Assembly (NCBI GenBank): GCA_044221045.1
Contig: JBGAPX010000003.1
Location: 1-64,000 of the forward strand
Source: Gemmatimonadales bacterium
Lineage (GTDB): Bacteria; Gemmatimonadota; Gemmatimonadetes; Gemmatimonadales; GWC2-71-9
Reading direction: 5' to 3'
Length of the DNA: 64,000 nucleotides
This document shows, piece by piece, positions 18,142 through 36,434 of this stretch; position 1 is the stretch's first letter; every line of letters starts with the position of its first letter. The notes under the pieces were generated by a model. It did not search any database, had not been told where the DNA came from, and saw only the letters and a list, made by a program, of their open reading frames with translations. A program made the translations under genes and the position numbers.

Positions 18142-18672
18142 GTGGCGACTCCCACGAGTACGGTCCTGAAGGTCCTGGTCCCGGCCGCCATCGCGGTGTT
18201 CGTGGTGGCGCTGGCGCGGCGGCAGCGCCTCGACCCGCGGCAGGACCTCGGCATGCGGTGGCCCGGGGCGCTGCCGGTGCTGGCCTGGCTCGGGGCGTAC
18301 GCCGCCTACATGCTGGGCACCGACGCGCTGTTCCACTGGCGGGGACCATTCGACTTTGCCCCCTGGCGGGCCATCCCGCTGGCGGTGGCGGCGGCGCGGG
18401 TACTGGCGGTCGGGGTGATCGGCCCGACGGCGGAGGAACTCGTCTTCCGGGGATACGGCTACGCCCGGCTTACCCGCACCCGCCTCGGCGTGGGGAGGAG
18501 CATCGGGCTGCTGGCGGCGGCGTGGTCGGTGGTGCACATCGAGTATGGCTGGCAGGTGCTGCTGCTGCTCTTCGGCGCCGGGCTCCTGCTCGGGGCGGCG
18601 CGCCACCGCACCGGCTCGGTGGTGACTCCCGTGGCCATGCACGTCCTCTGGAACCTCTACGCCATCTGGTAG
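18142..18672 (+). CDS. CPBP (CAAX protease / Abi) family intramembrane metalloprotease.
   Basis: PTAEELVFRGYGY (EExxxR motif) plus conserved His residues in later transmembrane helices. Members of this family are often bacteriocin immunity proteins. Confidence 0.7.
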   Translation: MATPTSTVLKVLVPAAIAVFVVALARRQRLDPRQDLGMRWPGALPVLAWLGAYAAYMLGTDALFHWRGPFDFAPWRAIPLAVAAARVLAVGVIGPTAEELVFRGYGYARLTRTRLGVGRSIGLLAAAWSVVHIEYGWQVLLLLFGAGLLLGAARHRTGSVVTPVAMHVLWNLYAIW

Positions 18673-21962: not shown

Positions 21963-22238
21963 TCAGCCACCGGCGATCGTGGGGACGATCGTGAGGACGT
22001 CTTCGGCGTGGACGGCGGTCCGGACGCCGTCCAGGTCGCGGACGTTGTCGCGGTTGCGGAAGACATTGATGAAGCCGCGCAGTTCGCCGTTGTCGGCGAA
22101 GAGGTGGCGACGGAGCGAGGGAAAGCGATCCACGAGCGCGGTCAGCGCCTCGGCCACGGTCGCGGCCTCGGTGGTGAAGCGCTGCTCGCCGGCGGTATAG
22201 GGACGGAAGGTGGACGGGATCGCGAAGGTCACGGCCAT
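21963..22238 (-). CDS. MoaD/ThiS/CysO-type ubiquitin-like sulfur-carrier protein.
   Basis: 91 aa ending in ...IVPTIAGG (C-terminal Gly-Gly). It lies directly upstream of moeZ on the same strand. Confidence 0.75.
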   Translation of the reverse strand: MAVTFAIPSTFRPYTAGEQRFTTEAATVAEALTALVDRFPSLRRHLFADNGELRGFINVFRNRDNVRDLDGVRTAVHAEDVLTIVPTIAGG

Positions 22239-22468: not shown

Positions 22469-22630
22469 ATGCAGGTCAAGTTCCTGGCGCTGGGCGTGCT
22501 GTTCCTGATTCTGGGCGTGGCGATTCCCCTGCAGCGGTGGCCGGGCCAGCGCCTCCCGCAGGTGCTGCTGCCGCTGCTGGCCGGGGTGCTGGCGGGATTG
22601 CTCCTGGCGCGAGTGCGGCCCAGCGCGTGA
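22469..22630 (+). CDS. Small (53 aa) two-helix membrane protein.
   Basis: MQVKFLALGVLFLILGVAIPLQRW...LLPLLAGVLAGLLLA, preceded by GGAGGA (tggaggacaccATG). It is the first plus-strand gene of the cluster. Confidence 0.45.
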   Translation: MQVKFLALGVLFLILGVAIPLQRWPGQRLPQVLLPLLAGVLAGLLLARVRPSA

Positions 22631-22859: not shown

Positions 22860-23141
22860 ATGCCCATCACTCGCGCGGAAGAGCTCATCCAGAAGCTCGG
22901 CACCGACCAGGCGTTTCGCTCCAAGCTGCAGAACGCGGCGGATCCCGAGGCGCGGCGCAAGGTGCTGAACGAGTACGGGTTCTCGGACGTGCAGCGCGCC
23001 GATCTCGAAGCCTACGCCAAGACGCACGCGACGGAGCTCTCCGACGCCGAGCTCGAGGCGGTCGCCGGTGGCCGCACCACCAGCTGGATCTCGGTGGTGA
23101 TCGAGTCGATCGGGCTGTCGCTGGCGGCGGCGGCGCTGTAG
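22860..23141 (+). CDS. RiPP precursor peptide with a Nif11-like leader (71 aa) and a 22-aa core RTTSWISVVIESIGLSLAAAAL.
   Basis: MPITRAEELIQKLGTDQAFRSKLQNAADPEARRKVLNEYGFSDVQRADLEAYAKTHATELSDAELEAVAGG is a Nif11-family leader ending in the LSDxELExVAGG double-glycine cleavage motif. The core has Ser/Thr but no Cys. Confidence 0.8.
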   Translation: MPITRAEELIQKLGTDQAFRSKLQNAADPEARRKVLNEYGFSDVQRADLEAYAKTHATELSDAELEAVAGGRTTSWISVVIESIGLSLAAAAL

Positions 23142-23280
23142 TCCAGGCCCCGGCCGCGCCGGTCGCCGGGTTCCCGCCGTCCCCCCGGGCGGCGGCACCC
23201 CCGGCCGGCGCCCGGTGCCGCCCGCGGACCGATTCCGGTCCGCGTCCCACATCCGCTTCCCCAGTCGCGAGCACCCGCCG

Positions 23281-24600
23281 ATGACCAGTACCTGCATGCC
23301 GAGGTCCGCGGAGCGGTCGCCGGCGCCGGGCGAACCCGCCCCGGCGCCCCCGATCCGTTTCCGGGGCCAGGACTACCGGGCACGGAAGGAGTTCTTCGGC
23401 GGTACCCACCGGGTCGTCCCGCCCGAGGAGACGCTGGAGCGCGCGCGACCCCACTTCCGGCGCGCGGGAATCACCCGGCTCGGTGACATCACGGGGCTCG
23501 ACGTGATCGGGTTGCCGACGGTGCTGGCGTACCGTCCCAACGGCAAGACGCTCTCGAGCGCGGGGGGCAAGGGCTTCACGACCGTCGCCGCGACGGTCTC
23601 GGCGGTGATGGAGGGGATCGAACTCCACCACGCCGAGAACGTGCGCCTGCCGGTCCGCCGCGCGAGCTACCAGGAGCTGGCGGCCGACGGCGCGGTCATC
23701 CCGCGCGCGCAACTCCCGCTGGCCCGGCACGGCCTGTTCCGGGACCACCGGCCGGAGCTGTGGGTCGAGGGATGGGACCTGCTGGGGCAGCACCCGGTGT
23801 GGGTGCCCTTCATCGGCGTATCGCTGGTCCGGCATCCGGCGCAGAAGCCGCTGTGGGGCCGCCCGTTCGTGTGCGACAGCAACGGCCTGGCCTCGGGCAA
23901 CGTGCTGCTGGAGGCGATGGCCGCCGCGCTCTATGAAGTGATCGAGCGTGACGCGATCTCCAGCTTCAAGTGCGCCGAGCACCGCGGCCTGCTGGAGCCG
24001 CGGCGGGTGCGCCTGGAGACGATCCGCCACCCGCTCGTCCGGCAACTGATCGACCAGTGCCAGCGGGCCGAGATCGAGCCGGTGATCTACGACCGGACGA
24101 CCGACCTCGAGGTGCCGGTCTACGAGGCCCACATCTACGATCGCTACCGCCGCCACACCGGGGTCTTCGGCGGCTATGGCTGCCACCTCGACCCGGAGAT
24201 CGCGATGATCCGGGCCCTGACCGAGGCGGCGCAGTCCCGGCTGGTGATCATCGCCGGCGCCCGCGACGACATCTTCCGCCATGAGGAGCTGTCGATGAAG
24301 CTCGCTGACGACGACGGCGCGGTGGAGCGCTACGAACGGACCCCCGCCACCCTCGACGCCCGGGACCGCGCCGCGGTCACGACGTCCTCGTTCGAGGGCG
24401 ACCTCGGCGTGCTGCTGGCGCGCCTGGCCGGGGCGGGGATCGGCCAGGTGATCGCGGTGGACCTCACCCACGAGGAGATCGGCCTGCCGGTCGTGCGGGT
24501 GATCGTCCCGGGGCTCGAGGGGTACATGTCGCAGCACTACGAGCCGGGGCCGCGGGCCCGCGCCTTCGTCGCGGCCGCCAAGGCCCGGAAGGGGGCCTGA
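23281..24600 (+). CDS. YcaO-domain protein of the TfuA-associated type (thioamide-forming / cyclodehydratase family).
   Basis: FFGGTHRVVPPEETLERARPHFRRAGITRLGDITGLDVIGLP...SNGLASGNVLLEAMAAALYEVIERDA matches YcaO ATP-binding motifs. Its stop overlaps the TfuA start (TGATG). The start (23281 or 23215) is uncertain. Confidence 0.85.
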   Translation: MTSTCMPRSAERSPAPGEPAPAPPIRFRGQDYRARKEFFGGTHRVVPPEETLERARPHFRRAGITRLGDITGLDVIGLPTVLAYRPNGKTLSSAGGKGFTTVAATVSAVMEGIELHHAENVRLPVRRASYQELAADGAVIPRAQLPLARHGLFRDHRPELWVEGWDLLGQHPVWVPFIGVSLVRHPAQKPLWGRPFVCDSNGLASGNVLLEAMAAALYEVIERDAISSFKCAEHRGLLEPRRVRLETIRHPLVRQLIDQCQRAEIEPVIYDRTTDLEVPVYEAHIYDRYRRHTGVFGGYGCHLDPEIAMIRALTEAAQSRLVIIAGARDDIFRHEELSMKLADDDGAVERYERTPATLDARDRAAVTTSSFEGDLGVLLARLAGAGIGQVIAVDLTHEEIGLPVVRVIVPGLEGYMSQHYEPGPRARAFVAAAKARKGA

Positions 24601-26000
24601 TGCGCGCGGTCGTCTTCCTCGGGCCCACCCTGCCGGTCGCGGAGGCCCGCCGCATCCTCGACGCGACCTACCTGCCGCCGGTGCGGCAGTCCGACCTGGT
24701 GAGCGCGGTGGGCATCCACCGCCCGGACGTCATCGCGATCGTCGACGGCGAGTTCCGGCACACCCTGTCGGTATGGCACAAGGAGATCCTGTTCGCCCTG
24801 GAGCGCGGGATCGCAGTCTACGGCGCGAGCAGCATGGGCGCGCTGCGCGCGGCCGAGTGCGACGCCTTCGGCATGGTTGGCGTGGGCGAGGTCTACCGCC
24901 AGTACGCCGACGGGACGATCGTCGACGACGACGAGGTCGCCCTGGCGCACGCACTCGACGAAGACGGCTACCGTCCCTTGTCGGAGCCGATGGTCAACCT
25001 CCGTGCCACCTTCGCCGCGGCGCGGGCCGCGGGCGTGGTGCGTCAGGCCGAACACGACACCCTGGTCCGCGTGGCCAAGGCCCGGTTCTTCGCCGAGCGG
25101 ACCCTGCCGGCGATCCTGCGGGACGCCGGCGCCGCCGGGGTGGCCGAGGCCACCCTCGAGGGGCTGCGGCGGTTCCTCGGCACCGGCTACGTGGACCAGA
25201 AGCGACTCGACGCGATCCGGCTGCTGGAGATGCTGCGGGACCGGCCCGAGCCCGGACCCGCCCCGGTCCCCTGCCGGGTGGAGCGCACCAGCCAGTTCCT
25301 GAGCCTGTACGAGCGTGACCGCCGGGTGCGCCACGACGGCGTCGAGGTGCCCCTGGCCGCGATCGCGAGCCACGCTGCACTCCACGATCCGGACTTCAAC
25401 GAGATCAACGACGCCGCGCTCGGCCGGGAGCTGGTTGCGATCCTGGCCGACCTGCTCGAGGTGAGCCCCACGGAGGAGGAAGTGGCGGAGGAGACCCGGC
25501 GGTTCCGGCTGCGGCGCCGCCTGCGGACCGACGCCGCCCTGGAGGAGTGGCAGGCGAGGAACGACCTGTTCCCGGAGGAGTTCGAGCGCCTGATGGCGCA
25601 GCGCGCCACCACCCGGGTGATGGAACAGTGGCTGGTCACACGGACCGGCTGGATGCGCCCCACCCGCTTCCTGCTGGACGAGCTGCGCCTGCGTGGTCGC
25701 TACGAGCAGGCCGCCGCGGCGGCCGCCGGGCTGGCCCGCACCTGCCAGGAGTACTTCCCGCACTTCGACCAGACCGGCACCGACCCGGCTCCCACGGAGG
25801 CGCTGGTCATCCGGCACCTGCGCGCGACGCGGTGCGCCATGGACACGCACTACTCGCGATGGTCGGAAGAGGCCGGCTTCCCCCGGCTGCTCGACCTGCG
25901 GAACGAACTGATCCGGTCCCAGCGGGTGCGGGAGCGGGTGGAGTCCCTGGCCCTCGAGGTCCTGGCCGGCGACCCCGCGGCCGCTGCGGCGCCGGCATGA
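24600..26000 (+). CDS. TfuA-like protein (YcaO partner) with an extra C-terminal domain of about 230 aa.
   Basis: The N-terminus MRAVVFLGPTLPVAEARRILDATYLPPVRQSDLVSAV...IAIVDGEF...SMGALRAAEC matches the TfuA domain. At 466 aa it is about twice the usual TfuA length. Confidence 0.8.
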   Translation: MRAVVFLGPTLPVAEARRILDATYLPPVRQSDLVSAVGIHRPDVIAIVDGEFRHTLSVWHKEILFALERGIAVYGASSMGALRAAECDAFGMVGVGEVYRQYADGTIVDDDEVALAHALDEDGYRPLSEPMVNLRATFAAARAAGVVRQAEHDTLVRVAKARFFAERTLPAILRDAGAAGVAEATLEGLRRFLGTGYVDQKRLDAIRLLEMLRDRPEPGPAPVPCRVERTSQFLSLYERDRRVRHDGVEVPLAAIASHAALHDPDFNEINDAALGRELVAILADLLEVSPTEEEVAEETRRFRLRRRLRTDAALEEWQARNDLFPEEFERLMAQRATTRVMEQWLVTRTGWMRPTRFLLDELRLRGRYEQAAAAAAGLARTCQEYFPHFDQTGTDPAPTEALVIRHLRATRCAMDTHYSRWSEEAGFPRLLDLRNELIRSQRVRERVESLALEVLAGDPAAAAAPA

Positions 26001-27931
26001 TCTCCCTGCTGCGCATCGCCCGGCCGTCGACGCTGGTGACGGCGCAGGTGTTCGAGGATCTCTTCGCGCGGGAATTCGGCGCGGCGTTCCGCCTGCGCCA
26101 CGTCACCCCCGCCGCCTGGGCGGACGCGATCCTCGGTCCGCCCGGCGCGCCGGCCAGCCCGGCGGCGGCCGCGCGGGCGTTCCGGGAGGCGGTGCGCGGG
26201 GTCGACGTCTGGTGTCCGGGCTACGAATGCCTGTCGCTGGTGCCCGAGTACACCTGGCTGCGCAACCGTGCGGGCGCCCGCGCCCGGCTGCTGCTGATCG
26301 CCCATTCCGGCGGGGCCACGCCCCTCGAGTGGGCGCTTCTCGCGCCGCTGCTGGCGCCCGGCGACGTGGTGGTCGCGCCCAGCGCCTCGGCGCGCGCGGC
26401 GATCGTGGCGCTCCATCCCGGACTCGCGCCCTTCCTGCACGTCATTCACCATCCCATGGCGCCCCTGCCCGGCGGTCCCCGCGCCCCGCAGCCGCTGCTG
26501 GTCAGCCTGGGCCGCCTGCACGCGGGAAAGTTCCTGCACCGGCAGCTCGATGCGCTCGCCTGGCTGCACGACCACGGCCGTGCGGTGCCGGATCTGGTGA
26601 TCGCGGGGCCGCTGGCCGAGGGGGGGCGCACCGAGCCGATGGCCTACGTGCAGGGCCTCCGGGCCCAGGCGGCGCGACTCGGGCTGGGCGGGCGGGTCCG
26701 CTTCAGCGGCGCGGTGATCGGGCCGGCGGCGAAGGGGCAGCTGCTCGGCGCCGCCCACCTGGTGCTCAATCTCTCCGGGACCCTCGAGGAGTCGTTCCCG
26801 AAGACGCCGGTGGAGGCGCTGGGCGTCGGCACGCCGGTGCTCGGGACCTGGTGGAACGGCGTGCGCGATACCGTGGGCGACTGCGGCACCCTGCTGCCGA
26901 TCCAGTTCGCCGGCACGCTCCCCGAGGTGCCCGACGTCGCGGTGCCCGCGCTGGCGGAGGCAATCGAGGCGCTGCTGGACCATCCGGTATCCCCGGAGCG
27001 CTGCCGGGCCCGCGCGGCGCAGTTCACCCCGGAGCGCATGATCGCGGCCTACCAGCGCACCCTCACGGCCGCCCTCGAGGGGGCGGGCCCGGGTCCGGAT
27101 GAGCCGCCGGCGGACCGACCGGCGGCGCCCGCCACGGGCCTGCTCTCGGCGGCCGCCCCGCTGCCCCAGGTGAGCTGGGCCTCGCTGTTCGGGGCGGCCC
27201 GCGCGGCGTCGGGCTGGTGGCGGGCGCAATGGGCGGCGCCGGGGAGCGGCACGCCTCCCGCCATCGAGCTGTATCGCCGCGTCGTGGAGGAAGCCGTGCG
27301 GCCGGCCCTTGAGCGCACCTTCGCCGGGCAGCCGGCGGGAGCGGCCGCCATGGCGTGCGGCGCGCCTGGCCAGCGGTTCGCCGATGCGGCGGATTCGGTG
27401 GCCGTCATGCATGCCGCGGCCACCGGCCGGGGCCTGCCGAGCGGCCGCTGCGCGGCGCTCCGGGTGCTGGTGGCCATGGGCGAAACCTCACGGGCGGCGG
27501 AGGGCCTCGCGTCGGTGCGCGCGGATGGAGCTGACGGTCCGGCCACGAGCCTGATCGCGCGCGACCTGCTCGCGCTGGCGGGCCGGCCGGGCGCGGCGCT
27601 GTCCGAGGCGCTCGCCGCCCTGGCGCCCAGCCGCCTGACGGACCGGGAGGTGGCGCCGCTCCGGCAGCTGGCGGTCCTCGCGCGGCAGGCGGGGGCCCCG
27701 GCCATCGCGATGCCGAGCCTGGCGGAGTGGCTCGACCGCCACCCCGACAGCCAGGAGTCCGGCCCCGTCTGGCTGGAACTCGCGGCCAATGGGCTGCAGG
27801 CGGGAGGCGCCGCCCTGCCGCTCGCGGCGCGGGCGCTGGAGCGGGCCCGCGCCCTGCTCGGCCAGCACCCCGTCGTGCTCCGCCTGACGGCAGCCCTGGA
27901 CCAGGCCCTGTTGCTCCACACCGCGGCCTGA
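25997..27931 (+). CDS. Glycosyltransferase family 1 (GT4-like) with a C-terminal alpha-helical region of about 290 aa.
   Basis: ATGA overlap with the TfuA stop. Glycos_transf_1 core: PDLVIAGPLAEGG...EESFPKTPVEALGVGTPVLGTWWNGVRDTVGD. Confidence 0.75.
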   Translation: MISLLRIARPSTLVTAQVFEDLFAREFGAAFRLRHVTPAAWADAILGPPGAPASPAAAARAFREAVRGVDVWCPGYECLSLVPEYTWLRNRAGARARLLLIAHSGGATPLEWALLAPLLAPGDVVVAPSASARAAIVALHPGLAPFLHVIHHPMAPLPGGPRAPQPLLVSLGRLHAGKFLHRQLDALAWLHDHGRAVPDLVIAGPLAEGGRTEPMAYVQGLRAQAARLGLGGRVRFSGAVIGPAAKGQLLGAAHLVLNLSGTLEESFPKTPVEALGVGTPVLGTWWNGVRDTVGDCGTLLPIQFAGTLPEVPDVAVPALAEAIEALLDHPVSPERCRARAAQFTPERMIAAYQRTLTAALEGAGPGPDEPPADRPAAPATGLLSAAAPLPQVSWASLFGAARAASGWWRAQWAAPGSGTPPAIELYRRVVEEAVRPALERTFAGQPAGAAAMACGAPGQRFADAADSVAVMHAAATGRGLPSGRCAALRVLVAMGETSRAAEGLASVRADGADGPATSLIARDLLALAGRPGAALSEALAALAPSRLTDREVAPLRQLAVLARQAGAPAIAMPSLAEWLDRHPDSQESGPVWLELAANGLQAGGAALPLAARALERARALLGQHPVVLRLTAALDQALLLHTAA

Positions 27932-27974
27932 ACGGCACCCGCCCTTACCGACCCTGCGGGGACGAGAGCTCACG

Positions 27975-29096
27975 ATGCGCAGCCTGGCCATCTGTCATCC
28001 CGCCGATCCGGACCTGGATCTGGCCACCGTCACCATCGCCGGCACGCCAGTCGCCACGGCCGCCCGGGAGATCGCCGACCCGCCCTTCGATCCTGAGGAG
28101 CCGGCCAACCGGTCGCTGGTCCGCCTCCGGGTGCTGGCTTTCTCGTGCAACTATCGGGACCGGGCCCGGATCATCGCCCTGGCGCAGAACATTCCCCCGG
28201 CGCGCTTCGCGACCTTCGGGTCGGAGTTCGTCGCGCTCGTGGAGGAGACCGGGGCCGACGTGACCCGGGTGCGGGCCGGCGAGCGCGTGATCGGGGACAA
28301 CCATTACGACATGCCGTTCCGCCTGGCCCAGCGCGATCCGGCCCGCCCGATCGGCATTCCCTCGGTGCAGGCCTCGCGCCGCTCGCTGCTGCTGCACGAG
28401 CGGGCGGTGGTGCCGGTCCCGAGCGTCATGCCGGATCCGGTCGCGGCGGCGTTCAGCCTGAATGCGCAGACGGCGTACAGCATGGTGCGCAAGCTGAGCC
28501 CCCCGCCCGGCGCGCCGATCCTGGTGACGGCCGGCAGCTCCAACACCTCGCTGTTCCTGCTGTCGGCCCTCTGCACCCGGCAGGCCGAGGTCTACGTGAC
28601 CACGACCTGTCCGCGCTGGATTCCCCGGCTCCGGGAGCTGGGGGCACGGGCGGTGTTCGACGTGCGGCGGGCCCCGAATGCGCTGGAGGAGCACGCCGCC
28701 CTGCGTCAGGCGGCCAACGCCGTCGGCGGGTTCTACGCGGTCTGCGACCCGTTCTTCGACCTCTACCTCCGCCAGTCGCTGCCGCTGGTCGCGCCCGGTG
28801 GGCGCTACATCACGTGCGGGCTGGAACGGCAGGGCCCCAACGCGGATGGGGAAGGCGGGAGCGACCCGGGCGAGGTGGCGATCGCGATGCAGATCGCGCT
28901 GTTCCGCAACCTCCAGCTCATCGGCAACTGCCTCGGGATGAGCGACGACCTGGCGCTGGCGCTGCGCGACTACGAGGCGGGGCGCCTTCCGGTCGTGGTG
29001 GACTCGGCGTTCGGCGGGGAGGATGCGGGCCCGTTCCTGGCCCGGACCTACACCACCGCCGACCGGTTCGGGAAGGTGGTCTTCCGGTATGACTAG
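27975..29096 (+). CDS. Medium-chain dehydrogenase/reductase (zinc-ADH/quinone-oxidoreductase fold); a candidate LanJ-type dehydro-amino-acid reductase.
   Basis: MDR fold: N-terminal GroES-like region (ERVIGD..), then a Rossmann region GAPILVTAGSSNTSLFLLSAL. It sits between the GT and LanM genes; its stop overlaps the LanM start by 8 nt. Confidence 0.65.
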   Translation: MRSLAICHPADPDLDLATVTIAGTPVATAAREIADPPFDPEEPANRSLVRLRVLAFSCNYRDRARIIALAQNIPPARFATFGSEFVALVEETGADVTRVRAGERVIGDNHYDMPFRLAQRDPARPIGIPSVQASRRSLLLHERAVVPVPSVMPDPVAAAFSLNAQTAYSMVRKLSPPPGAPILVTAGSSNTSLFLLSALCTRQAEVYVTTTCPRWIPRLRELGARAVFDVRRAPNALEEHAALRQAANAVGGFYAVCDPFFDLYLRQSLPLVAPGGRYITCGLERQGPNADGEGGSDPGEVAIAMQIALFRNLQLIGNCLGMSDDLALALRDYEAGRLPVVVDSAFGGEDAGPFLARTYTTADRFGKVVFRYD

Positions 29097-32000
29097 CCCG
29101 GCCGCCACGCGCCGCCGTTCCCGCCGCCCGCCACCGCCCGAGGTGGCGCGCATCATCGTCCGGGCGGCATCGCCCTGGGAGCGGGCCTCCCATCCCGCCT
29201 TCGCCCCCTGCGTCCCCGCCGATCCGGCCCTGGTGGGCGCGCGGCGTGCGGCGTGGGCCCGCGCCCTTGGCGTGGGCGACCCGGCGGCGCTGGCGGCGCG
29301 GCTCCGCGACCGGGGCCACGACGCGCCGGACTTCGAGCGCGCGCTCGCCGAGGTCGAGATCGCCCGGCCGGAGCGGCTCCCGCGCTGGGCGAGGGACCTG
29401 GCGCGGCTGCTGGAACCCGGGGTGGACCGGGATCCGATCGCGCCGTTCCGGAACGCGGAGGTGCTTGACGCCCAGACCCTGCGCACCGCCGGCGTGGACC
29501 CCGACCAGCCGTGGGCATGCCAGGGTGCCATCGCCCCGTTCCTGCGGCACGCGCGACGGCGGCTGCGCCGCGCCGCGCGCCGCAGTGGCGAGGCGCTGAC
29601 GCCGCCGGTGGAACGCCAGCTCCTCCTGGCCCTCACCCAACGGCTGGCGATGCTGGTGGGACGGGTCTTCCTGGCCCGGGTCGAGGCCGAGCACCTGCTG
29701 GCCGGCTTTCCCGGCGCGGCGGGCATGACGATCTATCGTGCCTGCTTCGGCGATGATGTCCCCGTGGCGCTGCAATGGCGACGCCTGCTGTTGCACTACC
29801 CGGTGCTCGGCCGTTTGCTTGCCGTGGCCCTCCGGCACTGGGGCGATGCGTCCGCCGAACTGCTGCAGCGGCTGGCGCAGGACCGCCAGGCGCTGACCGA
29901 GGCCTTCGGCGGTGGCGAGCCGCTGGGCCCCCTAGCCTCCATCCGCTCCGACACTGGCGACAGTCACGAACAGGGGCGAGCGGTCGCCATTCTCGGATTT
30001 GCCGGCGGCCAGCGGGTGGTGTACAAGCCCAAGGATCTGCGGATCGCGGCGGCGGCGCTCTCGCTGCTCCGGTGGTGCAATGACGCCGGGCTGTCGCTGC
30101 CGCTGCCGGTGCGGACCATCCTGTTGCGGCGGGATTACGCGTGGGAGGCGTTCGCCGTGGAGCGCCCCTGCGGGAGCCGGGCGGAGGTCGAGCGCTACTA
30201 CCGCCGCATGGGGCAGTACGCGCGCCTGCTGCAGCTCACGGACGGGATGGACTTCACCACCGACAACGTCCTGGCACAGGGGGAAACCCCGGTGCTGGTC
30301 GACCTCGAGATGTTCGTGGCGCCCCGGTACCGGAGCGCGATCGCGGGGGAGGAAGGCCACGGCGGCCTGGGCGCCCTCACCAGCGACCTGCCGCTGCGCA
30401 GCGCCCTGGTCACCAGCAAGGTGTACGGTGAGGCGGGGCGCCGGCCGGCCGACCTCGGCGCGCTGGCCGGGTCGTCCCAGCGCCTTGCGCCGTTCAAGCT
30501 GCCGGTGCCGCTCCGGCGGCCCGGCGAGGCCCCCGCGTTCGAGTGGGGATATCTCCCGTTCTCGGGGGGCTCAGCCGCGCCGGTGATGGATGGGGCCCCC
30601 GTGCCGGTGGAGGAATTCGCGGACCAGGTGATCGCGGGATACGCGGAGATGGCGGCGCTCCTGCGCGATCACCGGCAGGAACTGGCCGCGGCCGACGGAC
30701 CACTCGCGCCGCTCCGGTCCGCGCCGATCCGGGCGCTGTGCCGGGACACTCACATCTACGCCCGGATCCTCGGCGAGAGCCTCTGGCCCGACCGCCTGCG
30801 CGACGGCGTGCTCCGTGAACTCTGCCTGGAGCGGCTCTGGCGGGGACGGTTCGCCGACCCGGCCATCAACGCCGCCGAGATCGAGAGCATCCGCGACCTC
30901 GACATCCCCCTCTTCCGCGCCGTGCCGGACCGCAACGCCCTCTATACGGAGCGGGGACACGAAGTGCCCGACTTCTTCGAGGCCGCGCCGTGGGCGCGGA
31001 TCGCCGCGCACCTCGAGGCACTCGGGGGCCGGACGGTCGGGGCAGAGGTCGAGGAGCTGCGCTCGGCGCTGTTCACGCTGGCGCCGTGGACCCGCGTCAC
31101 CACCACGCCGGTGCCGCGCCCGCCCGCCGCGCCGGACTTCGCCGCCGCCGCGCGCGAGATCGGACGGGAGCTGGTGCGGAGTGAGTCCGTCGGCGGGCAG
31201 GCCGCGGGCTGGCTCGGGCTCCGCTACCAGCCGGAGTTCGACGCCTGGGAGTTCACGGTGCTGCACGCCGACCTGCTGAGCGGGACCGTCGGCATCGCGG
31301 TGCTGCTCGCCGACCTGGCCAGGGGAGCGCGCGGGGCGCCCTCGCCGACGCTCGAGCGCCTGCTGGCGCGCCTCGAGCGCCGGCTCACGCTTCGTCTTGG
31401 CGGCGAGCCCGACGCGGACCCCTGGGAGAGCCCGGGGGCGTTCCACGGCTGGGGCAGCTGGTACTACGGCCTGGTCCGGGCGCACGTGGCGCTGGGGGAC
31501 CGTGCCGCCGTGTCCCGCGCGGTGTCCCTGGTGGAGGGGCTCGACGTCGACCACCTCGACGCGGTGACGGGCGATGTCATCGATGGCCCCGCCGGCCTCC
31601 TCGCCGTCCTCGGCAGTACCCCCGCGTGGGCCATGACCCCGGCGCTCGCGCGCCTGATGCGCGCCGTGGCGCTCCGGGTCGGAGCCCAACTGACCGGAGG
31701 GGATACGCCGGGACCGGCACCCCTGCGGCCCGAGGGCGCCACCGGGCTCGACGCGCTCCCCGCCGGGAGGACTGGCGTGGTCTGGAGCCTCTGCCGGGCC
31801 GCGCGGCAGCTGGGTGATGCCACCCTGGCTCCAGCCGATGCGCTCGTGCAGCAGGCACTTCCGCCCGAGCCCGGAGTCGGGCCCGCCGGCCAGGCCGCGC
31901 TCCTGCTGGATCTCGCGGACCATGCGCCCGTCGCGCGCGATGCGGCGGTCCATCACGCGACGGCTGTGCTCGACCGGATGGGCGCGCCTGCCACCGGCGC

Positions 32001-32256
32001 GGAGTTGCTTGAGGCGGGCGAACTCGCGCTGGGGCTCGCCCGCCTGACGATGGACGCCCGCTATCTCGCGACCGCCCGTCGGTTCGGCGCCGGCCTTGTG
32101 GCCCGGCGCGCGGCGACGGGACGATGGTTTCCGGAGCGCCTTGCCTCCGACCGGCACCTGGTGTCGGCGATCAGCGGCACCGCCTCCGTGGCGCACCTCT
32201 GCCTGCGGCTGGCCGAGCCGGGACGGCACGCCTCGATCCGGCTGCTGGGCTGTTGA
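29089..32256 (+). CDS. Class II lanthipeptide synthetase-like protein (LanM-like): an N-terminal dehydratase domain and a C-terminal LanC-like domain.
   Basis: GDSHEQGRAVAILGFAGGQRVVYKPKDLRIAAA and TTDNVLAQGETPVLVDLEMFVAP match LanM kinase-like dehydratase motifs. The C-terminus has LanC-like Gly-rich repeats (SGTVGIAVLLADL, AFHGWGSWYYG, DGPAGLLAVLG, GTASVAHLCL). Confidence 0.8.
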   Translation: MTSPAATRRRSRRPPPPEVARIIVRAASPWERASHPAFAPCVPADPALVGARRAAWARALGVGDPAALAARLRDRGHDAPDFERALAEVEIARPERLPRWARDLARLLEPGVDRDPIAPFRNAEVLDAQTLRTAGVDPDQPWACQGAIAPFLRHARRRLRRAARRSGEALTPPVERQLLLALTQRLAMLVGRVFLARVEAEHLLAGFPGAAGMTIYRACFGDDVPVALQWRRLLLHYPVLGRLLAVALRHWGDASAELLQRLAQDRQALTEAFGGGEPLGPLASIRSDTGDSHEQGRAVAILGFAGGQRVVYKPKDLRIAAAALSLLRWCNDAGLSLPLPVRTILLRRDYAWEAFAVERPCGSRAEVERYYRRMGQYARLLQLTDGMDFTTDNVLAQGETPVLVDLEMFVAPRYRSAIAGEEGHGGLGALTSDLPLRSALVTSKVYGEAGRRPADLGALAGSSQRLAPFKLPVPLRRPGEAPAFEWGYLPFSGGSAAPVMDGAPVPVEEFADQVIAGYAEMAALLRDHRQELAAADGPLAPLRSAPIRALCRDTHIYARILGESLWPDRLRDGVLRELCLERLWRGRFADPAINAAEIESIRDLDIPLFRAVPDRNALYTERGHEVPDFFEAAPWARIAAHLEALGGRTVGAEVEELRSALFTLAPWTRVTTTPVPRPPAAPDFAAAAREIGRELVRSESVGGQAAGWLGLRYQPEFDAWEFTVLHADLLSGTVGIAVLLADLARGARGAPSPTLERLLARLERRLTLRLGGEPDADPWESPGAFHGWGSWYYGLVRAHVALGDRAAVSRAVSLVEGLDVDHLDAVTGDVIDGPAGLLAVLGSTPAWAMTPALARLMRAVALRVGAQLTGGDTPGPAPLRPEGATGLDALPAGRTGVVWSLCRAARQLGDATLAPADALVQQALPPEPGVGPAGQAALLLDLADHAPVARDAAVHHATAVLDRMGAPATGAELLEAGELALGLARLTMDARYLATARRFGAGLVARRAATGRWFPERLASDRHLVSAISGTASVAHLCLRLAEPGRHASIRLLGC

Positions 32257-32269
32257 GGGCGCAGGGGTC

Positions 32270-33034
32270 GTGCGAATCCTCGACCTGGACCTGGACTTCT
32301 TCCTCGATCGCGTCGGTTTTCGACGGCCGGATGGCGGCCGACTGGACCCGGACCGGTATCACCCCTGGCCGGAGCCGGAACTGGAGTCCTGGCTCGACCG
32401 CTGCCTCCCGCCGAGTGCACCGCGCCCGCGGGGGCGGGTGGTGACCCACCATCGCGAGGCGTTCTACGTCTGGCGGGAGCTGGTGGAGCGGGGCGCGCTC
32501 GTGCCCCCCCTGGAGATCGTCCATGTGGACGCCCATGCGGACCTCGGCGTGAGCAATGATGGCCACCGGTACCTCATGACGGACCTGCTGCACCGGCCGC
32601 CCGCGGACCGGCGCGCCCCCGCCGCGGAGAAGCTCCGCGACGGCAACTACCTGCTCTTCGCCGTGGCGTGCCGATGGGTTGGGGCCCTCACCTACGTGAC
32701 CCACCCGCAGAGGGAGCGGGCCGGCCGGCTGTGGCAGGACGACCGGCCGACCTGTCTCTTCCGCGACGACGACCCGGAGAGCGGCATCCTGGAGCTTCGA
32801 CGCATGGCCTCGCGGGAGCTCGCGTTCCTTCCCCCGGTCCTGCACGGCTATGGCCGGACCGCGACCACCCCCCTCGGGCTCGAGCCCGCGGTGACGTTCC
32901 GGACCATCGCGGCCCGCGAGTTCGCGGTCGAGGCGCCGTTCGACTTCGTGCTGGTGGCGCGATCGCCTGACTACACGCCGGAGACCGCGGACCGCCTGCT
33001 GCCCCGCATCATGGCCCGGCTCGCCCCGGGCTGA
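32270..33034 (+). CDS. Hypothetical protein, possibly a metal-dependent (UPF0489-like) enzyme.
   Basis: GTG start just after the LanM stop. Motifs VVTHHREAFYVWREL and VHVDAHADLG suggest a His/Asp metal site. The family assignment is tentative. Confidence 0.45.
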   Translation: MRILDLDLDFFLDRVGFRRPDGGRLDPDRYHPWPEPELESWLDRCLPPSAPRPRGRVVTHHREAFYVWRELVERGALVPPLEIVHVDAHADLGVSNDGHRYLMTDLLHRPPADRRAPAAEKLRDGNYLLFAVACRWVGALTYVTHPQRERAGRLWQDDRPTCLFRDDDPESGILELRRMASRELAFLPPVLHGYGRTATTPLGLEPAVTFRTIAAREFAVEAPFDFVLVARSPDYTPETADRLLPRIMARLAPG

Positions 33035-33058
33035 TCCCTCCCGGTCCCGAGCGCGCGC

Positions 33059-34099
33059 ATGCACACCCTGCTCGACAGCCTGCTCACCGTCGGTCATCCG
33101 GCCGTCGCGACGCTGGTCTCTCCCGTCGCGTGGGAGCGCATTTCGGCGGTGGCAGACCGACTGCCCGCCCCGCTCGCCCGATGGCTCTACCTCGAGCGGC
33201 GACTGGACCTTTCCGACGAGCGGGTGGACCTGATCGTCGGGGTGGAGCGAACCGAGGCTCGCCGCCTCGCGGAACCGGGCCGGCCTTTCGAGCCGATGCC
33301 GCGCGGCATCCGCCGCCTTGCCCGGGCCTGGTCAACCGACCAGCGGTATCGGTCCATCGAGCGATGCTGGCTGGAATACGATGTCCTGCCCGACGGAGCG
33401 GCGCCTGCGCCGGGCGTCTTCCTCGACCTGGAGCCGGCTGCCGCGGTGCTCGGCCCGGCGGGCCCGTTCCCGGCCGTGCACCCGGGCCTGGCGTGTCTCG
33501 GTCTCCCGCCTGACCGGCTCCGCCCAGCCCTCCAGCTCCTGGCGCGGCTCCAGGGGCGGGCCCCGGGGCTGCTCCTTCCTTATGTAGGGTATTTCCCCGA
33601 TCGCGCCGATGCCCCGCTCCGGGTGTGCCTTTCGGGCGTCGCGGAGGACACCATCGCCGCGCTGCTCACCGACCTGTCGTGGCCGGGTGAGGTCAGCCGG
33701 GTCGTGACCGTGCTGGCCGCGGCCGGCAGGGCCCCGAGCGTGATCCATCTTGATCTCGGTCCGGAGCTCCTGCCGAGTGTCGGGTTCGAGTTCGGGCTGG
33801 ATCACGGCGCGCAGCTCGAAGGCCGGCTGGCCGAGGGGGCCTGGCTCACTGAGTGGGTTCGCCGGGGATGGTGCCGGCCCGAACTGGTCGCCGGACTCTG
33901 CCGCTGGCCCGAGGTGACCACCGGCGTGATGAGCCATGAGGTGTGGCCGAGCCTTCTGGTCCGCCGGGTCAACCACCTCAAGCTGGTCCTGGACGCTGCC
34001 GGTCGACTGGCGTGCAAGGGGTACCTCTGCTTCACGCACGCGCCACTCTCCGCCCACCGCCCGCGGCGGGCCGAGTCGAGGCAGCTCTCTATCCGTTAG
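33059..34099 (+). CDS. Hypothetical protein with no recognisable domain.
   Basis: A 346-aa ORF in the cluster orientation, with GC3 skew consistent with coding. No motif recognised. Confidence 0.45.
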   Translation: MHTLLDSLLTVGHPAVATLVSPVAWERISAVADRLPAPLARWLYLERRLDLSDERVDLIVGVERTEARRLAEPGRPFEPMPRGIRRLARAWSTDQRYRSIERCWLEYDVLPDGAAPAPGVFLDLEPAAAVLGPAGPFPAVHPGLACLGLPPDRLRPALQLLARLQGRAPGLLLPYVGYFPDRADAPLRVCLSGVAEDTIAALLTDLSWPGEVSRVVTVLAAAGRAPSVIHLDLGPELLPSVGFEFGLDHGAQLEGRLAEGAWLTEWVRRGWCRPELVAGLCRWPEVTTGVMSHEVWPSLLVRRVNHLKLVLDAAGRLACKGYLCFTHAPLSAHRPRRAESRQLSIR

Positions 34100-34185
34100 A
34101 TCGAGCGCTCGGCCCGGGCCGGATCCGCCGGGTGGTCCATGCTCGATGTTGTGGCCCTGACAGCAGTTGCTCACCGCGCCCCCGA

Positions 34186-34201
34186 CGGTACGGGCCTTGC
34201 C
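34186..34201 (+). promoter_or_regulatory. Candidate sigma-54 (-24/-12) promoter upstream of the NHLP precursor gene.
   Basis: cGGTACgggccTTGCc, about 60 bp upstream of the ATG at 34261. Same GG-N10-GC TTGC arrangement as at 22761. Confidence 0.4.
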
Positions 34202-34260
34202 TTCCTGCGATCAGCAAGTCGTCTGGTCTCCGCGTCACTGCCACGACATCCGGAGTAGCG

Positions 34261-34635
34261 ATGCCCACGTCCAATGATCGGGAGCGCCAGGTCCTCGAAG
34301 CCGTCGTGGATCGGGCGTCGAAGGACCCAGTGTTCCGCAAGCTGCTGCTCACCGACCCGCGGGGCACCATCGACGCGAACTTCGGCGTCCGGATCCCGGA
34401 GACATTCCGGATCCGGTTCATCGAGCGGGACCCGGATCTCGACGCCCTCATCGTCCTGCCGGACCTGCAGGTCACCAACGCGGAGCTGTCGGACCAGGAC
34501 CTCGAGGCGGTGACTGGCGGTGCCCAGCAGTCGGCATGGGCGGGCGAGCTGGGCCCGATCTCGGTTCCTGCGGCCGGCTTCATCCTCAACGGCGCGTACG
34601 TGCAGAGTCGTGGCACGCTCGGGCGCCGTTCCTAG
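34261..34635 (+). CDS. RiPP precursor peptide with an NHLP (nitrile hydratase leader peptide) leader of 87 aa and a 37-aa core.
   Basis: MPTSNDRERQVLEAVVDRASKDPVFRKLLLTDPRGTIDANFGVRIPETFRIRFIERDPDLDALIVLPDLQVTNAELSDQDLEAVTGG | AQQSAWAGELGPISVPAAGFILNGAYVQSRGTLGRRS. The leader is NHLP-like with a GG cleavage site. The core has no Cys. Confidence 0.8.
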   Translation: MPTSNDRERQVLEAVVDRASKDPVFRKLLLTDPRGTIDANFGVRIPETFRIRFIERDPDLDALIVLPDLQVTNAELSDQDLEAVTGGAQQSAWAGELGPISVPAAGFILNGAYVQSRGTLGRRS

Positions 34636-34669
34636 CGGATTGCCCACCTCCCAACCCAGGAGCATCCCC

Positions 34670-34867
34670 GTGACCCCTCCGTCCGTGAACTCACCGGAGC
34701 GCCCGTCCCAGCCGTCGCCGACCCTGGCCGGGCTGGATGAACTGAGCGACGCGGACCTCGAGCATGCGGTCGGCGGGCTGGCGCGGGTCTGGCTGGGGGC
34801 GGACCTGCCCCGGTCCGAGGACGTCCTGTTCCGGTCCGCGCTGCCGGCGCATCCGGCCGTGTCGTGA
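34670..34867 (+). CDS. Third small precursor-like peptide (65 aa) with a short double-glycine leader.
   Basis: GTG start after AGGAG. VTPPSVNSPERPSQPSPTLAGLDELSDADLEHAVGG | LARVWLGADLPRSEDVLFRSALPAHPAVS. LSDADLEHAVGG resembles class-II bacteriocin GG leaders. The core has no Cys. Confidence 0.5.
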   Translation: MTPPSVNSPERPSQPSPTLAGLDELSDADLEHAVGGLARVWLGADLPRSEDVLFRSALPAHPAVS

Positions 34868-34874
34868 GGATGTG

Positions 34875-36434
34875 ATGACGGTCGCATCGTCCTGCGTCGT
34901 GCGACGGTCCGGCGCTGGCTGGTGGCTGCGCGGCGTCCCGCTCGGGCCGCTGTTCTGGCTGCTGTTGCCCACGGCGCTGGCCGCACAGGAGGAGGCGCCG
35001 CCCGGGGCCCTGCACCTGCGGGACGCGCTGCGACTGGCCCGCGGCGGGAACACCGCCATCCGCCTGGCGACGGAGCAGACCCGTGTGGCCTGGGCGGGCT
35101 CGCTGCAGGCGAGCGCCCCCTACGACCTCAACTTCACGACGTCGTTCACCTCGGTCACCAGCCGCAGCCCGGTGCAGGTGCCGGGGGCCGTCGCCTCGCT
35201 GCCGGACGTGAGCGCGCTGAAGCAGCTGGACTACAGCGTGGGACTGAGCAAGACCTTCCGCTCCGGCCTGCAGCTCTCGCCTTCGGTCACGGTGCAGCGG
35301 ATCGACCTCTCGACGACGCCGGGCGCCCCGGTGGCGCGCTCCACCGTGGCGCTCAATGCGCTGGTGCCGTTGCTGCGCGACCGGGCCGCCCTGAACCTCC
35401 GCGCGTCCGGCGAGGTAGCCGACGCCGAGGTGCTCGCGTCGGAGGATGACCGGCGGCACGCGACGGCGGTGGCGCTGCAGTCGGTGGCGGCGGCCTACTG
35501 GACCTACGTGGGAGGGGTGCGGCGACTCGCCGCGCAGCAGGCCGCCGAGGCGCGGGCCCAGCGCACGGTGGAGGTGACCCGCCGGCTCATCGAGGCGGAC
35601 GAAAGGACCCCGTCCGACCTCGACCAGGTGATCGCCAACGCGACCCAGAAGACGGTGCTGCGGCTGGCGGCGGAACAGGCGCTGGTCCAGGCCCGCCAGC
35701 AGCTCGGGGTCGCGATGGGGCTCGACCCCGGGGCGATCGCCACGCTGCCGCTGCCGGCGGACAGCTTCCCCATGGCCGCCGGGAATGCCGCGGTGCCGCG
35801 CCTGGCCGATTGGCAGGCGCAGGCGGTGGCGGGGCGGCGCGACCTGTCGGCCGCCACGACGCGGGCCCGTGCCACTGACTGGCTGGAGCGGTCGGCCGCG
35901 AACGACCTGCGACCCCGGCTCGACCTCTCGGTCGGGGTGGGCTACCAGGGCATCGACCAGGGCAACGAGGCCGACCACACCCTGGGCGCGCTGTTTCGGA
36001 ACGTGCCCGGGCTGCAGGCCACCGTGCAGGTCCGCTTCCAGCAACCGACGAGCGGGACCCTCGGTCACGCGCGGCTGGTCCAGGCGGAGGCCACCACGGC
36101 CCAGCGGGAGGCCACCCTGGCAGACCTGCGCCGGCGCGTCCTCTCGTCGGTGGAGGTGGCGGCGCGGGGCCTCGATAACGCCCGGGTCAGCGTGGACGCG
36201 GCCGGCACGGCGGTGGCGATGGCGCGCCGCGGCGTGGACCACCAGGAGCGCAAGTTTGCGCTCGGGTTGGCCACGCTCTTCGACGTCATCCAGGCCCAGG
36301 ACGCGCTCACCGCGGCCGAACTGAGCGAGATCACCAGCCAGCAGGCCTTCGCCGTCGCGATCGCGCAGCTCCGCCTCGAAACGGCCACCCTGGTGCTGGA
36401 CGACGCGCCGGTGGACCTGCTGCAGGCGCCGTAG
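34875..36434 (+). CDS. TolC-like outer-membrane efflux protein.
   Basis: Signal peptide (LGPLFWLLLPTALAAQEE), then two repeats of the OEP fold with conserved coiled regions (LATLFDVIQAQDALTAAE...). Confidence 0.8.
   Translation: MTVASSCVVRRSGAGWWLRGVPLGPLFWLLLPTALAAQEEAPPGALHLRDALRLARGGNTAIRLATEQTRVAWAGSLQASAPYDLNFTTSFTSVTSRSPVQVPGAVASLPDVSALKQLDYSVGLSKTFRSGLQLSPSVTVQRIDLSTTPGAPVARSTVALNALVPLLRDRAALNLRASGEVADAEVLASEDDRRHATAVALQSVAAAYWTYVGGVRRLAAQQAAEARAQRTVEVTRRLIEADERTPSDLDQVIANATQKTVLRLAAEQALVQARQQLGVAMGLDPGAIATLPLPADSFPMAAGNAAVPRLADWQAQAVAGRRDLSAATTRARATDWLERSAANDLRPRLDLSVGVGYQGIDQGNEADHTLGALFRNVPGLQATVQVRFQQPTSGTLGHARLVQAEATTAQREATLADLRRRVLSSVEVAARGLDNARVSVDAAGTAVAMARRGVDHQERKFALGLATLFDVIQAQDALTAAELSEITSQQAFAVAIAQLRLETATLVLDDAPVDLLQAP

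Follow-up and report, generated by a model that had tools for sequence, protein, structure and literature searches.

The 64,000-nt stretch of DNA analyzed here (positions 1 to 64,000 of the Gemmatimonadales contig JBGAPX010000003.1, assembly GCA_044221045.1; hereafter the window), identical to contig JAXLXY010000011.1 of the metagenome-assembled genome Gemmatimonadales bacterium STL-GEM4, carries a gene cluster for peptides that ribosomes make and that are modified after translation (RiPPs), in which a LanM-like enzyme (29089–32256) accompanies three precursors whose core peptides contain no Cys. Our analyses indicate that this enzyme is very probably a dehydratase that works independently of zinc and forms no thioether, and that the cluster makes non-lanthionine, probably linear and heavily tailored peptides by a scheme that, taken as a whole, we only just favor. 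Every part of the original prediction, which had been made from the sequence of the window alone, that could be tested computationally has held. Each class of component in the cluster has precedent; their combination, a LanMbC-type enzyme with a TfuA-type YcaO, a LanJA reductase and glycosyltransferases for a hydrophobic core beginning x-T-S-T-W in the Gemmatimonadota, is an uncharacterized variant. To judge from its gene content, one small operon appears to unite thioamidation, dehydration and reduction to D-residues, to bring a sulfur relay of its own, and to act on a conserved core motif that is very short. To our knowledge, there are almost no characterized natural products from Gemmatimonadota. 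The cluster was compared, by pairwise identities and partner-gene content, with eight further copies (L002, L003, L004, L083, L084, L085, L086 and L087), which came from a search of one genome per species using the clade alignment, together with look-ups of metagenomic homologs.

Cysteine-free precursors and the LanM-like enzyme

Translations of the open reading frames (ORFs) agree exactly with the earlier reading that all three core peptides of the cluster lack Cys. All three ORFs lie in frames backed by third-position GC (GC3), a measure which tells true genes from many spurious ORFs in the window, whose GC content is 73%. An actinomycete source, which such a GC content might suggest, was rejected because of the TolC-like and HlyD genes and the identity of the contig. 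The Nif11-leader precursor (22860–23141, plus strand; TIGR03798, E 2.8e-15, and Pfam Nif11) has the core RTTSWISVVIESIGLSLAAAAL after AVAGG, beginning RTTSW. The NHLP-leader precursor (34261–34635, plus strand; TIGR03793, E 1e-14) has the core AQQSAWAGELGPISVPAAGFILNGAYVQSRGTLGRRS after AVTGG, which begins AQQSAW and ends GRRS, and the short GG-leader precursor (approximately 34685–34867, plus strand; GC3 support; leader end matching TIGR03898 at 25 bits, cut-off 23.5) has the core LARVWLGADLPRSEDVLFRSALPAHPAVS, which begins LARVW (LARVWL...AVS). A six-frame motif scan of the 64 kb gave just these three GG-leader peptides, and no Cys-containing precursor was found in the window. Alternative starts or frameshifts that might reveal Cys-containing cores were also excluded: the cores are C-terminal and therefore alternative starts cannot bring in Cys, and homologous cores confirm the frames.

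By itself the absence of Cys is not significant, zero Cys in 88 residues having a probability of 0.46 at the Cys frequency of the window (0.88%). It is meaningful because it is conserved in the relatives and accompanied by loss of the zinc site of the LanM-like enzyme. The Nif11 cores of the relatives are ATTAWLTAIILILVA, TSASWVLVSLAAIALAVA, RTATWTVVIATTVAATIVGAATVGLIP, ATSTWVLVIIALAVA, QTSTWVAIAVALAVAA, RTSIWIAIAVAIIVA, KTSTWILVSLAALALA and ESASWAAVIIAAVALALM, and Cys is found neither in any of the nine Nif11 cores nor in the five other cores obtained from relatives. In all nine the pattern x-(T/S)-x-x-W precedes a hydrophobic tail, Ser or Thr standing at position 2 and Trp at position 5 in every case; the tails are 10–22 residues long and have a grand average of hydropathy of 1.9–3.5. 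They hold 2–7 Ser/Thr in 15–27 residues, the remainder being Ala, Val, Ile and Leu, and Thr predominates among the hydroxy residues that are conserved. A Trp is also present at core position 5 or 6 in all three window peptides. Because of this, and because W5 is invariant in the nine Nif11 cores, the alignments suggest that the Trp is a site of modification (prenylation or glycosylation?) or of recognition.

The LanM-like protein has a DUF4135 dehydratase domain (E 2e-90) fused to a LanC-like domain that lacks a zinc site. Its match to TIGR03897 is confined to model positions 3–778 of 932, and no Pfam match to LANC_like was obtained above threshold. In HMMER alignments with LicM2 and CylM the phosphorylation residues are kept, with D292, H294, K314, D389, N394, D406 and E408 corresponding to D252, H254, K274, D347, N352, D364 and E366 of CylM. 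The elimination pair, R549 and T555 (R506 and T512 of CylM), is kept as well and is nearly invariant in the clade, and the single catalytic change relative to CylM is of H349 to Thr391. It had been proposed that the enzyme acts as either a Ser/Thr dehydratase or a kinase; the former part of that proposal stands, and a kinase alone is the less likely reading because the elimination residues are kept alongside those for phosphorylation.

The suspected loss of the zinc ligands was confirmed and extends to the catalytic His, since alignments with canonical LanMs show none of the motifs SHG, WCxG and C(H/C)G in the enzyme. Across 46 aligned homologs, the canonical LanMs have GxSHG, WCHG and C(H/C)G, whereas in the query and its clade the catalytic His is replaced by Ala (SHG to PAG), the WC region is deleted and the third site has no Cys or His. 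The same zinc-less state was found in the LanM-like genes of loci L001–L037 and was upheld by more careful local alignment, and no conserved Cys or His was found in the C-terminal domain across 20 clade members. The domain is nevertheless predicted to fold as a LanC-like toroid still, its AlphaFold model having a mean predicted local distance difference test (pLDDT) score of 91.8 and matching LicM2 (E 1e-7, template modeling score 0.70), LanCL1/2, GCR2, CuvL, MadC, NisC and ThurKC in Foldseek. Its conserved residues include W709, G733, G736, G788, G837, P892, W1014, S1027, G1031 and R1052. Of the features of a class II lanthipeptide system, the window thus has a DUF4135 domain with its catalytic residues and has neither a cyclase with zinc ligands nor Cys in the cores. 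The earlier conclusion that (methyl)lanthionine rings do not form is supported by both the Cys-free cores and the enzyme's missing ligands and catalytic His. By its domain composition and motifs, the enzyme is assigned to the published LanMbC class.

Reductase, thioamidation genes and comparison with known systems

The gene for a medium-chain dehydrogenase/reductase (MDR; 27975–29096, plus strand) abuts that for the LanM-like enzyme. It had been likened to LanJ-type enzymes such as LtnJ, and our searches make it a specific homolog of LtnJ and of the staphylococcin C55 reductase. Its Pfam matches (ADH_N and ADH_zinc_N) are weak. A tblastn search of 72,556 plasmids gave as top matches Azospirillum pAB510a (46%) and Pseudanabaena (38%), followed by staphylococcin C55-type S. 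aureus plasmids (31%, E 3e-36), Pediococcus (E 2e-39) and L. lactis pMRC01 (29%, E 6e-33). One Actinomyces oris record was also among the matches (35.5%, E 1e-26), and generic alcohol dehydrogenases reached only E 1e-4. The pMRC01 match is the gene immediately 3' of ltnM2, that is, LtnJ, and a reciprocal search of the window with LtnJ returned the MDR gene as sole match (E 2e-42). Membership of the LanJA family is, at the level of sequence, well supported because of these plasmid matches, the reciprocal search and the motifs SCN(Y/F)RDK, GSEF, RVIxD, G(I/V)P(S/T)N, SxTSLF, DPFFD, YxTCGL, IIGNCxG and GKxV that the MDR has in common with the LtnJ/SacJ family. LtnJ, SacJ and RodJA, which come from the lacticin 3147, staphylococcin C55 and rodencin systems, are 29–31% identical to it over ~95% of the length, and their genes likewise lie directly beside a LanM-type gene, although these enzymes act on true ringed lanthipeptides, unlike the Cys-free substrates of the window. 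Reduction to D-residues we consider reasonably probable.

An assignment of YcaO and TfuA to thioamide chemistry fits the gene map, in which the two genes are adjacent and are accompanied by a dedicated ThiS/ThiF-rhodanese pair. The YcaO gene (23215–24600, plus strand; Pfam YcaO, E 1.5e-76) is the only one in the window and lies 4.5 kb upstream of the LanM-like gene in the same direction, and the start of the TfuA gene (24600–26000, plus strand; Pfam TfuA, E 1e-45; NF033432, E 8e-66, residues 3–213 of 466) overlaps its stop. The best NCBIfam match of the YcaO is the McrA-glycine thioamidation YcaO (237 bits), so that the best models for YcaO and TfuA together are the McrA thioamidation pair, and it has no E1-like fusion such as azoline-forming YcaOs possess in dehydrazole-type loci. 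Upstream are the genes for a ThiS-family sulfur carrier (21963–22238, minus strand; Pfam ThiS, E 1e-9; C-terminus ...IAGG) and a ThiF/MoeB-type adenylyltransferase with a rhodanese domain (20766–21938, minus strand; Pfam ThiF, E 5e-81, and Rhodanese, E 8e-15). Homologs of the latter, 58–78% identical, are present in L003, L004 and L083–L087, and ThiS is found beside ThiF in relatives too. We have good confidence that thioamidation occurs. The adjacent YcaO-TfuA pair is as in known thioamidated RiPPs (thioamitides and thiovarsolins), although the thioamitides differ in having unrelated dehydration enzymes and aminovinylcysteine. Malit et al. (2021) listed Nif11-like precursors among TfuA-related clusters, and the legend to their multi-panel figure 4 names MoeB and a family-4 glycosyltransferase, the panel being unspecified (PMC8120280). 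As a separate observation, the TfuA proteins of the clade are 463–497 aa long, their first ~210 residues being the TfuA domain, and the C-terminal extension of ~250 aa has no family match; it is missing in the TfuA of L088 (217 aa), and the Azospirillum protein was matched over the TfuA-domain part only.

Among the closest published systems are the LanMbC clusters that make dehydrazoles such as carnazolamide. Their enzyme CcaM dehydrates only a Ser that precedes a YcaO-made azole, is leader-independent, requires its zinc-less domain and gives dehydroalanine (Dha) without lanthionine (Pei, Zhu & Nair 2023; PMC10676384). About 50 LanMbC clusters were described in that work, one of them with an additional YcaO-TfuA (PMC10676384). 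Like those clusters, the window combines DUF4135 and a zinc-less LanC-like domain with a neighboring YcaO and long leaders of the NHLP/Nif11 type, its expected product would likewise have dehydro residues and no lanthionine, and its enzyme is 28–31% identical over its full length to dehydrazole-locus LanMbCs versus 22–27% to canonical LanMs. The differences are as marked: the YcaO of the window is TfuA-paired and has no E1-like fusion, a ThcOx/nitroreductase dehydrogenase is lacking, the cores are Cys-free, Ser/Thr-poor and hydrophobic whereas dehydrazole cores are rich in Ser, Thr and Cys, and the LanJA reductase, glycosyltransferases and ThiS/ThiF relay are additional.

The core architecture of the cluster is present in the eight further copies, approximately seven of which are distinct, L004 and L085 being near-duplicates with an identical core. 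The three named hosts (a Gemmatimonadales bacterium, a Longimicrobium and a member of the Gemmatimonadaceae) are all Gemmatimonadota. The recurring block consists of a GT4-family glycosyltransferase, ThiF-rhodanese and ThiS on one side and, on the other, a small hydrophobic ORF, the Nif11 precursor, YcaO, TfuA, a glycosyltransferase of ~640 aa, in most cases the MDR, and the LanMbC enzyme. Gene order and core motif are kept at 37–66% protein identity across the eight copies, and YcaO/TfuA accompanies the LanM-like enzyme throughout the clade. In some copies a gene for a methyltransferase-like protein of 380–405 aa with a weak N-terminal match to TIGR04290 (E ~1e-3) is present (L083, 8736–9926; L084, 8446–9663; L087, 7732–8871; L086, 9331–10008; and L003). 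It takes the place of the MDR gene in L083 and L084 and stands alongside it in L003, L086 and L087, and this replacement or joining of the MDR indicates modular swapping of tailoring steps.

Azole-type loci were sought by tblastn, the probes being two proteins of the metagenomic locus L088, its ThcOx dehydrogenase and its E1-fused YcaO. Both were found in 36 LanMbC loci (Nostoc, Bacteroidota, Herbidospora, Nonomuraea, Sphaerisporangium and others), and neither was found with these probes in the window, L002–L004 or L082–L087. The E1-fused YcaO matches that of the window at 26% identity over the YcaO part only, and no azoline dehydrogenase or second YcaO is present at 16–44 kb of the window. 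Because the azole-type probes are absent from these loci, the Gemmatimonadota clade pairs LanMbC solely with a thioamide-type YcaO/TfuA and sulfur relay, a combination for which no description was found in the literature searched. L088 itself (metagenome contig Ga0207099_1121) has a dehydrazole-type cluster together with a separate YcaO-TfuA, a B12-radical SAM enzyme and an S8 peptidase, and resembles the Nakamurella example of Pei et al.

A dehydratase-only LanM with a LanJA reductase and Cys-free substrates has, to judge from sequence comparisons, arisen more than once, because a cyanobacterial lineage (L050 and L060) and Azospirillum sp. B510 plasmid pAB510a carry a like pairing. Of the comparative evidence for the logic of the original prediction, this recurrence is the strongest. 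According to two reviews, the npn cluster of Nostoc punctiforme, with NpnJA, has Cys-free cores, a LanM and a reductase, for which linear peptides with D-Ala derived from Ser were proposed in 2015, and both it and the alpha peptide of bicereucin resemble the window in their Cys-free cores, LanM-type dehydratase and reductase (PMC5808125, PMC12328550). The MDRs of L050 and L060 are 38–39% identical to that of the window, and an ABBA-like homolog (see below) is present; these loci differ from the window in being without YcaO/TfuA and glycosyltransferases and in having cores that end in KW and do not start with x-T-S-T-W. The LanMs of these cyanobacteria form a lineage apart, whose ligands were lost by point substitutions, whereas those of the window were lost by deletion. 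This second zinc-less lineage was seen in L030, L042, L050 and L060, its motifs being in place and mutated (GFAGG or NYWRG, SWATG and MWGNCG); a LanJA-type MDR occurs with the Cys-free KW-ending cores in L050 and L060, and an MDR is also present in L030.

Relative to the window, pAB510a encodes a zinc-less LanM-like protein (34% in the dehydratase domain), an MDR (46%), a YcaO (38%), a TfuA (44%) and an ABBA-like protein (27%), together with HlyD and C39-ABC proteins. Seven of its eight NHLP precursors read through as hydrophobic, Ser/Thr-rich cores with two Cys in 272 residues, and the eighth reads differently and is possibly frameshifted. It differs from the window in having NHLP instead of Nif11 leaders and cores of 34–45 residues with many Ser/Thr that end in Trp (mostly KW), and the 31 kb of the plasmid that were examined showed neither glycosyltransferases nor ThiS/ThiF. 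Haft et al. (2010) noted this NHLP cluster and left its chemical fate undetermined (PMC2887384).

Proposed pathway and competing explanations

The gene content, the domain identities, the lost zinc site, the retained dehydratase residues, the missing Cys and the conservation across loci are established above; the chemical steps, their order and the residues modified are given here as we infer them. The substrate would be the Nif11-leader peptide, whose short polar head reads x-(T/S)-x-x-W and whose hydrophobic tail is 10–22 residues long. ThiF-rhodanese would load the ThiS-GG terminus with sulfur, which TfuA would hand to YcaO for the formation of one or more backbone thioamides. The LanMbC-type enzyme would then phosphorylate Thr/Ser of the core head and eliminate the phosphate to give dehydrobutyrine (Dhb) or Dha, its LanC-like domain probably binding the substrate as in CcaM, and dehydration may need prior modification by YcaO. 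No thioether ring would be formed because the LanC-like domain has no zinc site and the cores have no Cys. The LanJA-type MDR, with NADPH, would reduce one or more dehydro residues to D-aminobutyrate (D-Abu) or D-Ala, the head may be decorated by one or both of the glycosyltransferases, and the C39-ABC transporter with HlyD and TolC would cleave after Gly-Gly and export the product.

Several points weigh against this pathway. The chief uncertainty is that CcaM, the sole characterized LanMbC, needs an azole after the Ser, and there is no azole machinery in the window, and therefore the azoles that CcaM needs cannot be made; activity of a LanMbC on an unmodified or thioamidated peptide would be an extrapolation from that enzyme. 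Characterized LanJA enzymes other than RodJA reduce Dha only (PMC11519912), yet two Nif11 cores (that of L002 and that of L004/L085) have Thr and no Ser. L083 and L084 have the methyltransferase-like gene in place of the MDR, and therefore reduction is not obligatory for the family. Each core has 1–7 Ser/Thr as against at least five tailoring enzymes, and the assignment of enzymes to residues is guesswork.

By analogy, a thioamide in place of the azole mark of CcaM suggests that dehydration may be thioamide-dependent. In a developed form of this idea, which we regard as speculative and rather unlikely, the LanMbCs of the clade would be thioamide-dependent dehydratases: the carbonyl of Thr/Ser 2–4 would first become a thiocarbonyl, dehydration would then give an alpha,beta-unsaturated thioamide, and this would be converted by LanJA to a D-thioamidated residue or by the LanC-like domain to a Cys-less thiazoline. 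Should it be true, and with glycosylation and Trp prenylation added, the products would represent a new RiPP class of lipid-like, membrane-inserting Gemmatimonadota peptides. The cluster is also a compact test case for the role of zinc-less LanC-like domains and for whether LanMbCs generally read a mark installed by YcaO.

Three other explanations of the cluster were weighed against the linear, dehydrated and reduced product favored here. The zinc-less LanC-like domain might cyclize a non-Cys nucleophile, adding a thioamide sulfur to Dhb/Dha to give a thiazoline, or the Trp indole or N-terminal amine to Dhb, and so yield a cyclic product. The domain is well folded and conserved, class III LanKC domains cyclize without zinc (PMC7268733), all nine cores have W5 and a Ser/Thr at position 2, and YcaO/TfuA is always present with the enzyme in the clade, all of which would suit such a role. 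In CcaM, however, a domain of the same type serves dehydration and makes no ring (PMC10676384), the catalytic His of LanC is an Ala here, the LanJA reductase encoded in most clusters speaks for one or more dehydro residues staying free for reduction, and no precedent for such crosslinks was found in the literature searched; we therefore view a cyclic product as doubtful.

A second alternative is that the LanM-like enzyme is a Ser/Thr kinase only, as the original prediction had allowed, with a phosphopeptide as product or intermediate and the MDR acting elsewhere, for instance in sugar-nucleotide metabolism. It draws on the change of CylM His349 to Thr391, on the weak Pfam matches of the MDR and on the two glycosyltransferases in the cluster, but is made very improbable by the retention of R549 and T555 throughout nearly all of the clade, by LtnJ and SacJ, which share the family motifs, being the closest characterized relatives of the MDR rather than sugar-modifying MDRs, and by clusters lacking a glycosyltransferase (L050, L060 and L082) in which the same type of MDR stands beside a LanM-like enzyme. 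Nor do we give much credence to a decaying lanthipeptide locus that has lost its cyclase domain and Cys by drift and has no defined product. The LanC motifs are degenerate, with no LANC_like match above threshold, and the organism is known solely as a metagenome-assembled genome, but all the genes are intact with a strong coding GC3 signal, gene order and core motif persist in the eight further copies despite identities as low as 37% (37–66%), the C-terminal domain is modeled with a pLDDT of 91.8, and the zinc-less state is found in more than 40 loci, including a relative class that is biochemically active (PMC10676384); decay is thus hardly credible.

No characterized example or product of LanMbC with LanJA and YcaO/TfuA was found in the literature searched, where absence is no proof. 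Pipelines for lanthipeptide genome mining drop Cys-free precursors (PMC7268733), and therefore clusters of this kind are systematically overlooked.

Add-on module, glycosyltransferases, transport and flanking genes

All genes at 22.8–43 kb are on the plus strand, and the ThiS, ThiF-rhodanese, GT4 and CPBP protease region lies upstream, with ThiS/ThiF divergent. Only the Nif11 peptide, among the three window peptides, co-varies with the core enzyme set. The NHLP peptide, a 346-aa protein and the third peptide are confined to the window, L002 (which is without the third peptide) and L086, and from this distribution the NHLP and short third peptides are seen as part of a variable add-on module, to which the 346-aa protein, which is ABBA prenyltransferase-like, and, in the window genome only, a peptide-arginase-like protein are also assigned. 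Homologs of the NHLP precursor have the cores GDLDLAHW in L002 and AQTANWADPIDPTG in L086, and the homolog of the short GG-leader precursor in L086 reads MSNPKRA...EHVVGG up to the end of the leader, followed by LTRRFVG....

The 346-aa protein (33059–34099, plus strand) is unannotated, and Pfam, NCBIfam and a word-indexed homolog search all gave no useful match to it. Structure prediction with a fold search and a full HMMER scan were informative: the protein is predicted to have the five alpha-beta-beta-alpha repeats forming a prenyltransferase (PT) barrel that define the ABBA fold, and the scan retrieved 3,403 clusters (at 50% identity) at E <= 1e-3. None of six sampled single-domain members has a Pfam match; other sampled members include one fused to a complete LanM, two with an NHLP-like leader at the end and one fused to DUF7005. 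The protein points to a large family of RiPP-associated ABBA prenyltransferase-like proteins, ~3,400 clusters without a Pfam model, some of them naturally fused to LanM. Some members of the ABBA family, such as PatF, are inactive. MppC, an ABBA enzyme, was reported in 2025 to carry out leader-dependent Trp prenylation of Nif11-type lanthipeptides (PMC12715784). The likely target of the putative prenyltransferase of the window is the core's Trp at position 5 or 6.

A UPF0489 or peptide-arginase-like protein is encoded at 32267–33034 (plus strand; Pfam UPF0489, 32.7 bits with a cut-off of 27; weak match to NF052474). Its hidden Markov model scores are low, and HHREAF, DAHAD and an N-terminal LDLDLDFF are present. 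Peptide arginases of the OspR family (PF12640) have three Mn-binding motifs, EEH(N/H)EAF, DxHxD and LDIDLDYF (PMC10028609), which the three of the window protein resemble. The protein looks permuted, LDLDLDFF being at the extreme N-terminus instead of ~120 residues after DxHxD, with HHREAF and DAHAD in the usual order. No homolog was found in the related loci, so that among the relatives examined it is restricted to the window. All three window cores contain Arg, and by analogy the protein is a candidate for conversion of Arg to ornithine in the window genome only.

The glycosyltransferase-like protein at 25997–27931 (plus strand; Pfam Glycos_transf_1, E 3e-13) has a GT1/GT4 domain at residues 164–342 and is present in all the related clusters at 41–50% identity; no Pfam family was found for its ~300-aa C-terminal part. 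The GT4-family glycosyltransferase (18657–20756, minus strand; Pfam Glyco_trans_1_4 and Glyco_transf_4) is in the same place in L002, L004 and L083–L087.

Downstream of the precursors are genes for a TolC-like outer-membrane efflux protein (34875–36434; Pfam OEP, E 4e-19), an HlyD-type membrane fusion protein (36475–37731; Pfam HlyD_3 and HlyD_D23), a Peptidase-C39 ABC transporter (37751–40042; Pfam Peptidase_C39, E 1e-33, ABC_membrane and ABC_tran) and another ABC transporter, which belongs to the NHLP/Nif11 export set (40055–43045; Pfam ABC_membrane and ABC_tran; 56% identical to its L086 homolog), all on the plus strand. Transporters of the Peptidase-C39 ABC type cut their substrates after Gly-Gly and export them.

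Upstream of the Nif11 precursor, a small hydrophobic protein of 53 aa with two hydrophobic segments is encoded at 22469–22630 (plus strand), with GC3 frame support and no sequence match. Hydrophobic ORFs of 51–59 aa occur at the matching position in L083, L084 and L087, the conservation being positional only. This protein, in an immunity or accessory role, and the CPBP/Rce1-like intramembrane protease (18142–18672, plus strand; Pfam Rce1-like, E 5e-19), which has a homolog upstream in L003, are possible candidate self-immunity factors for a membrane-active peptide. A sigma-54-dependent activator is encoded 2.6 kb downstream of the transport genes (45656–46897) and may regulate the cluster; a homolog 54% identical to it directly follows the LanM-like gene in L002 (13156–14301).

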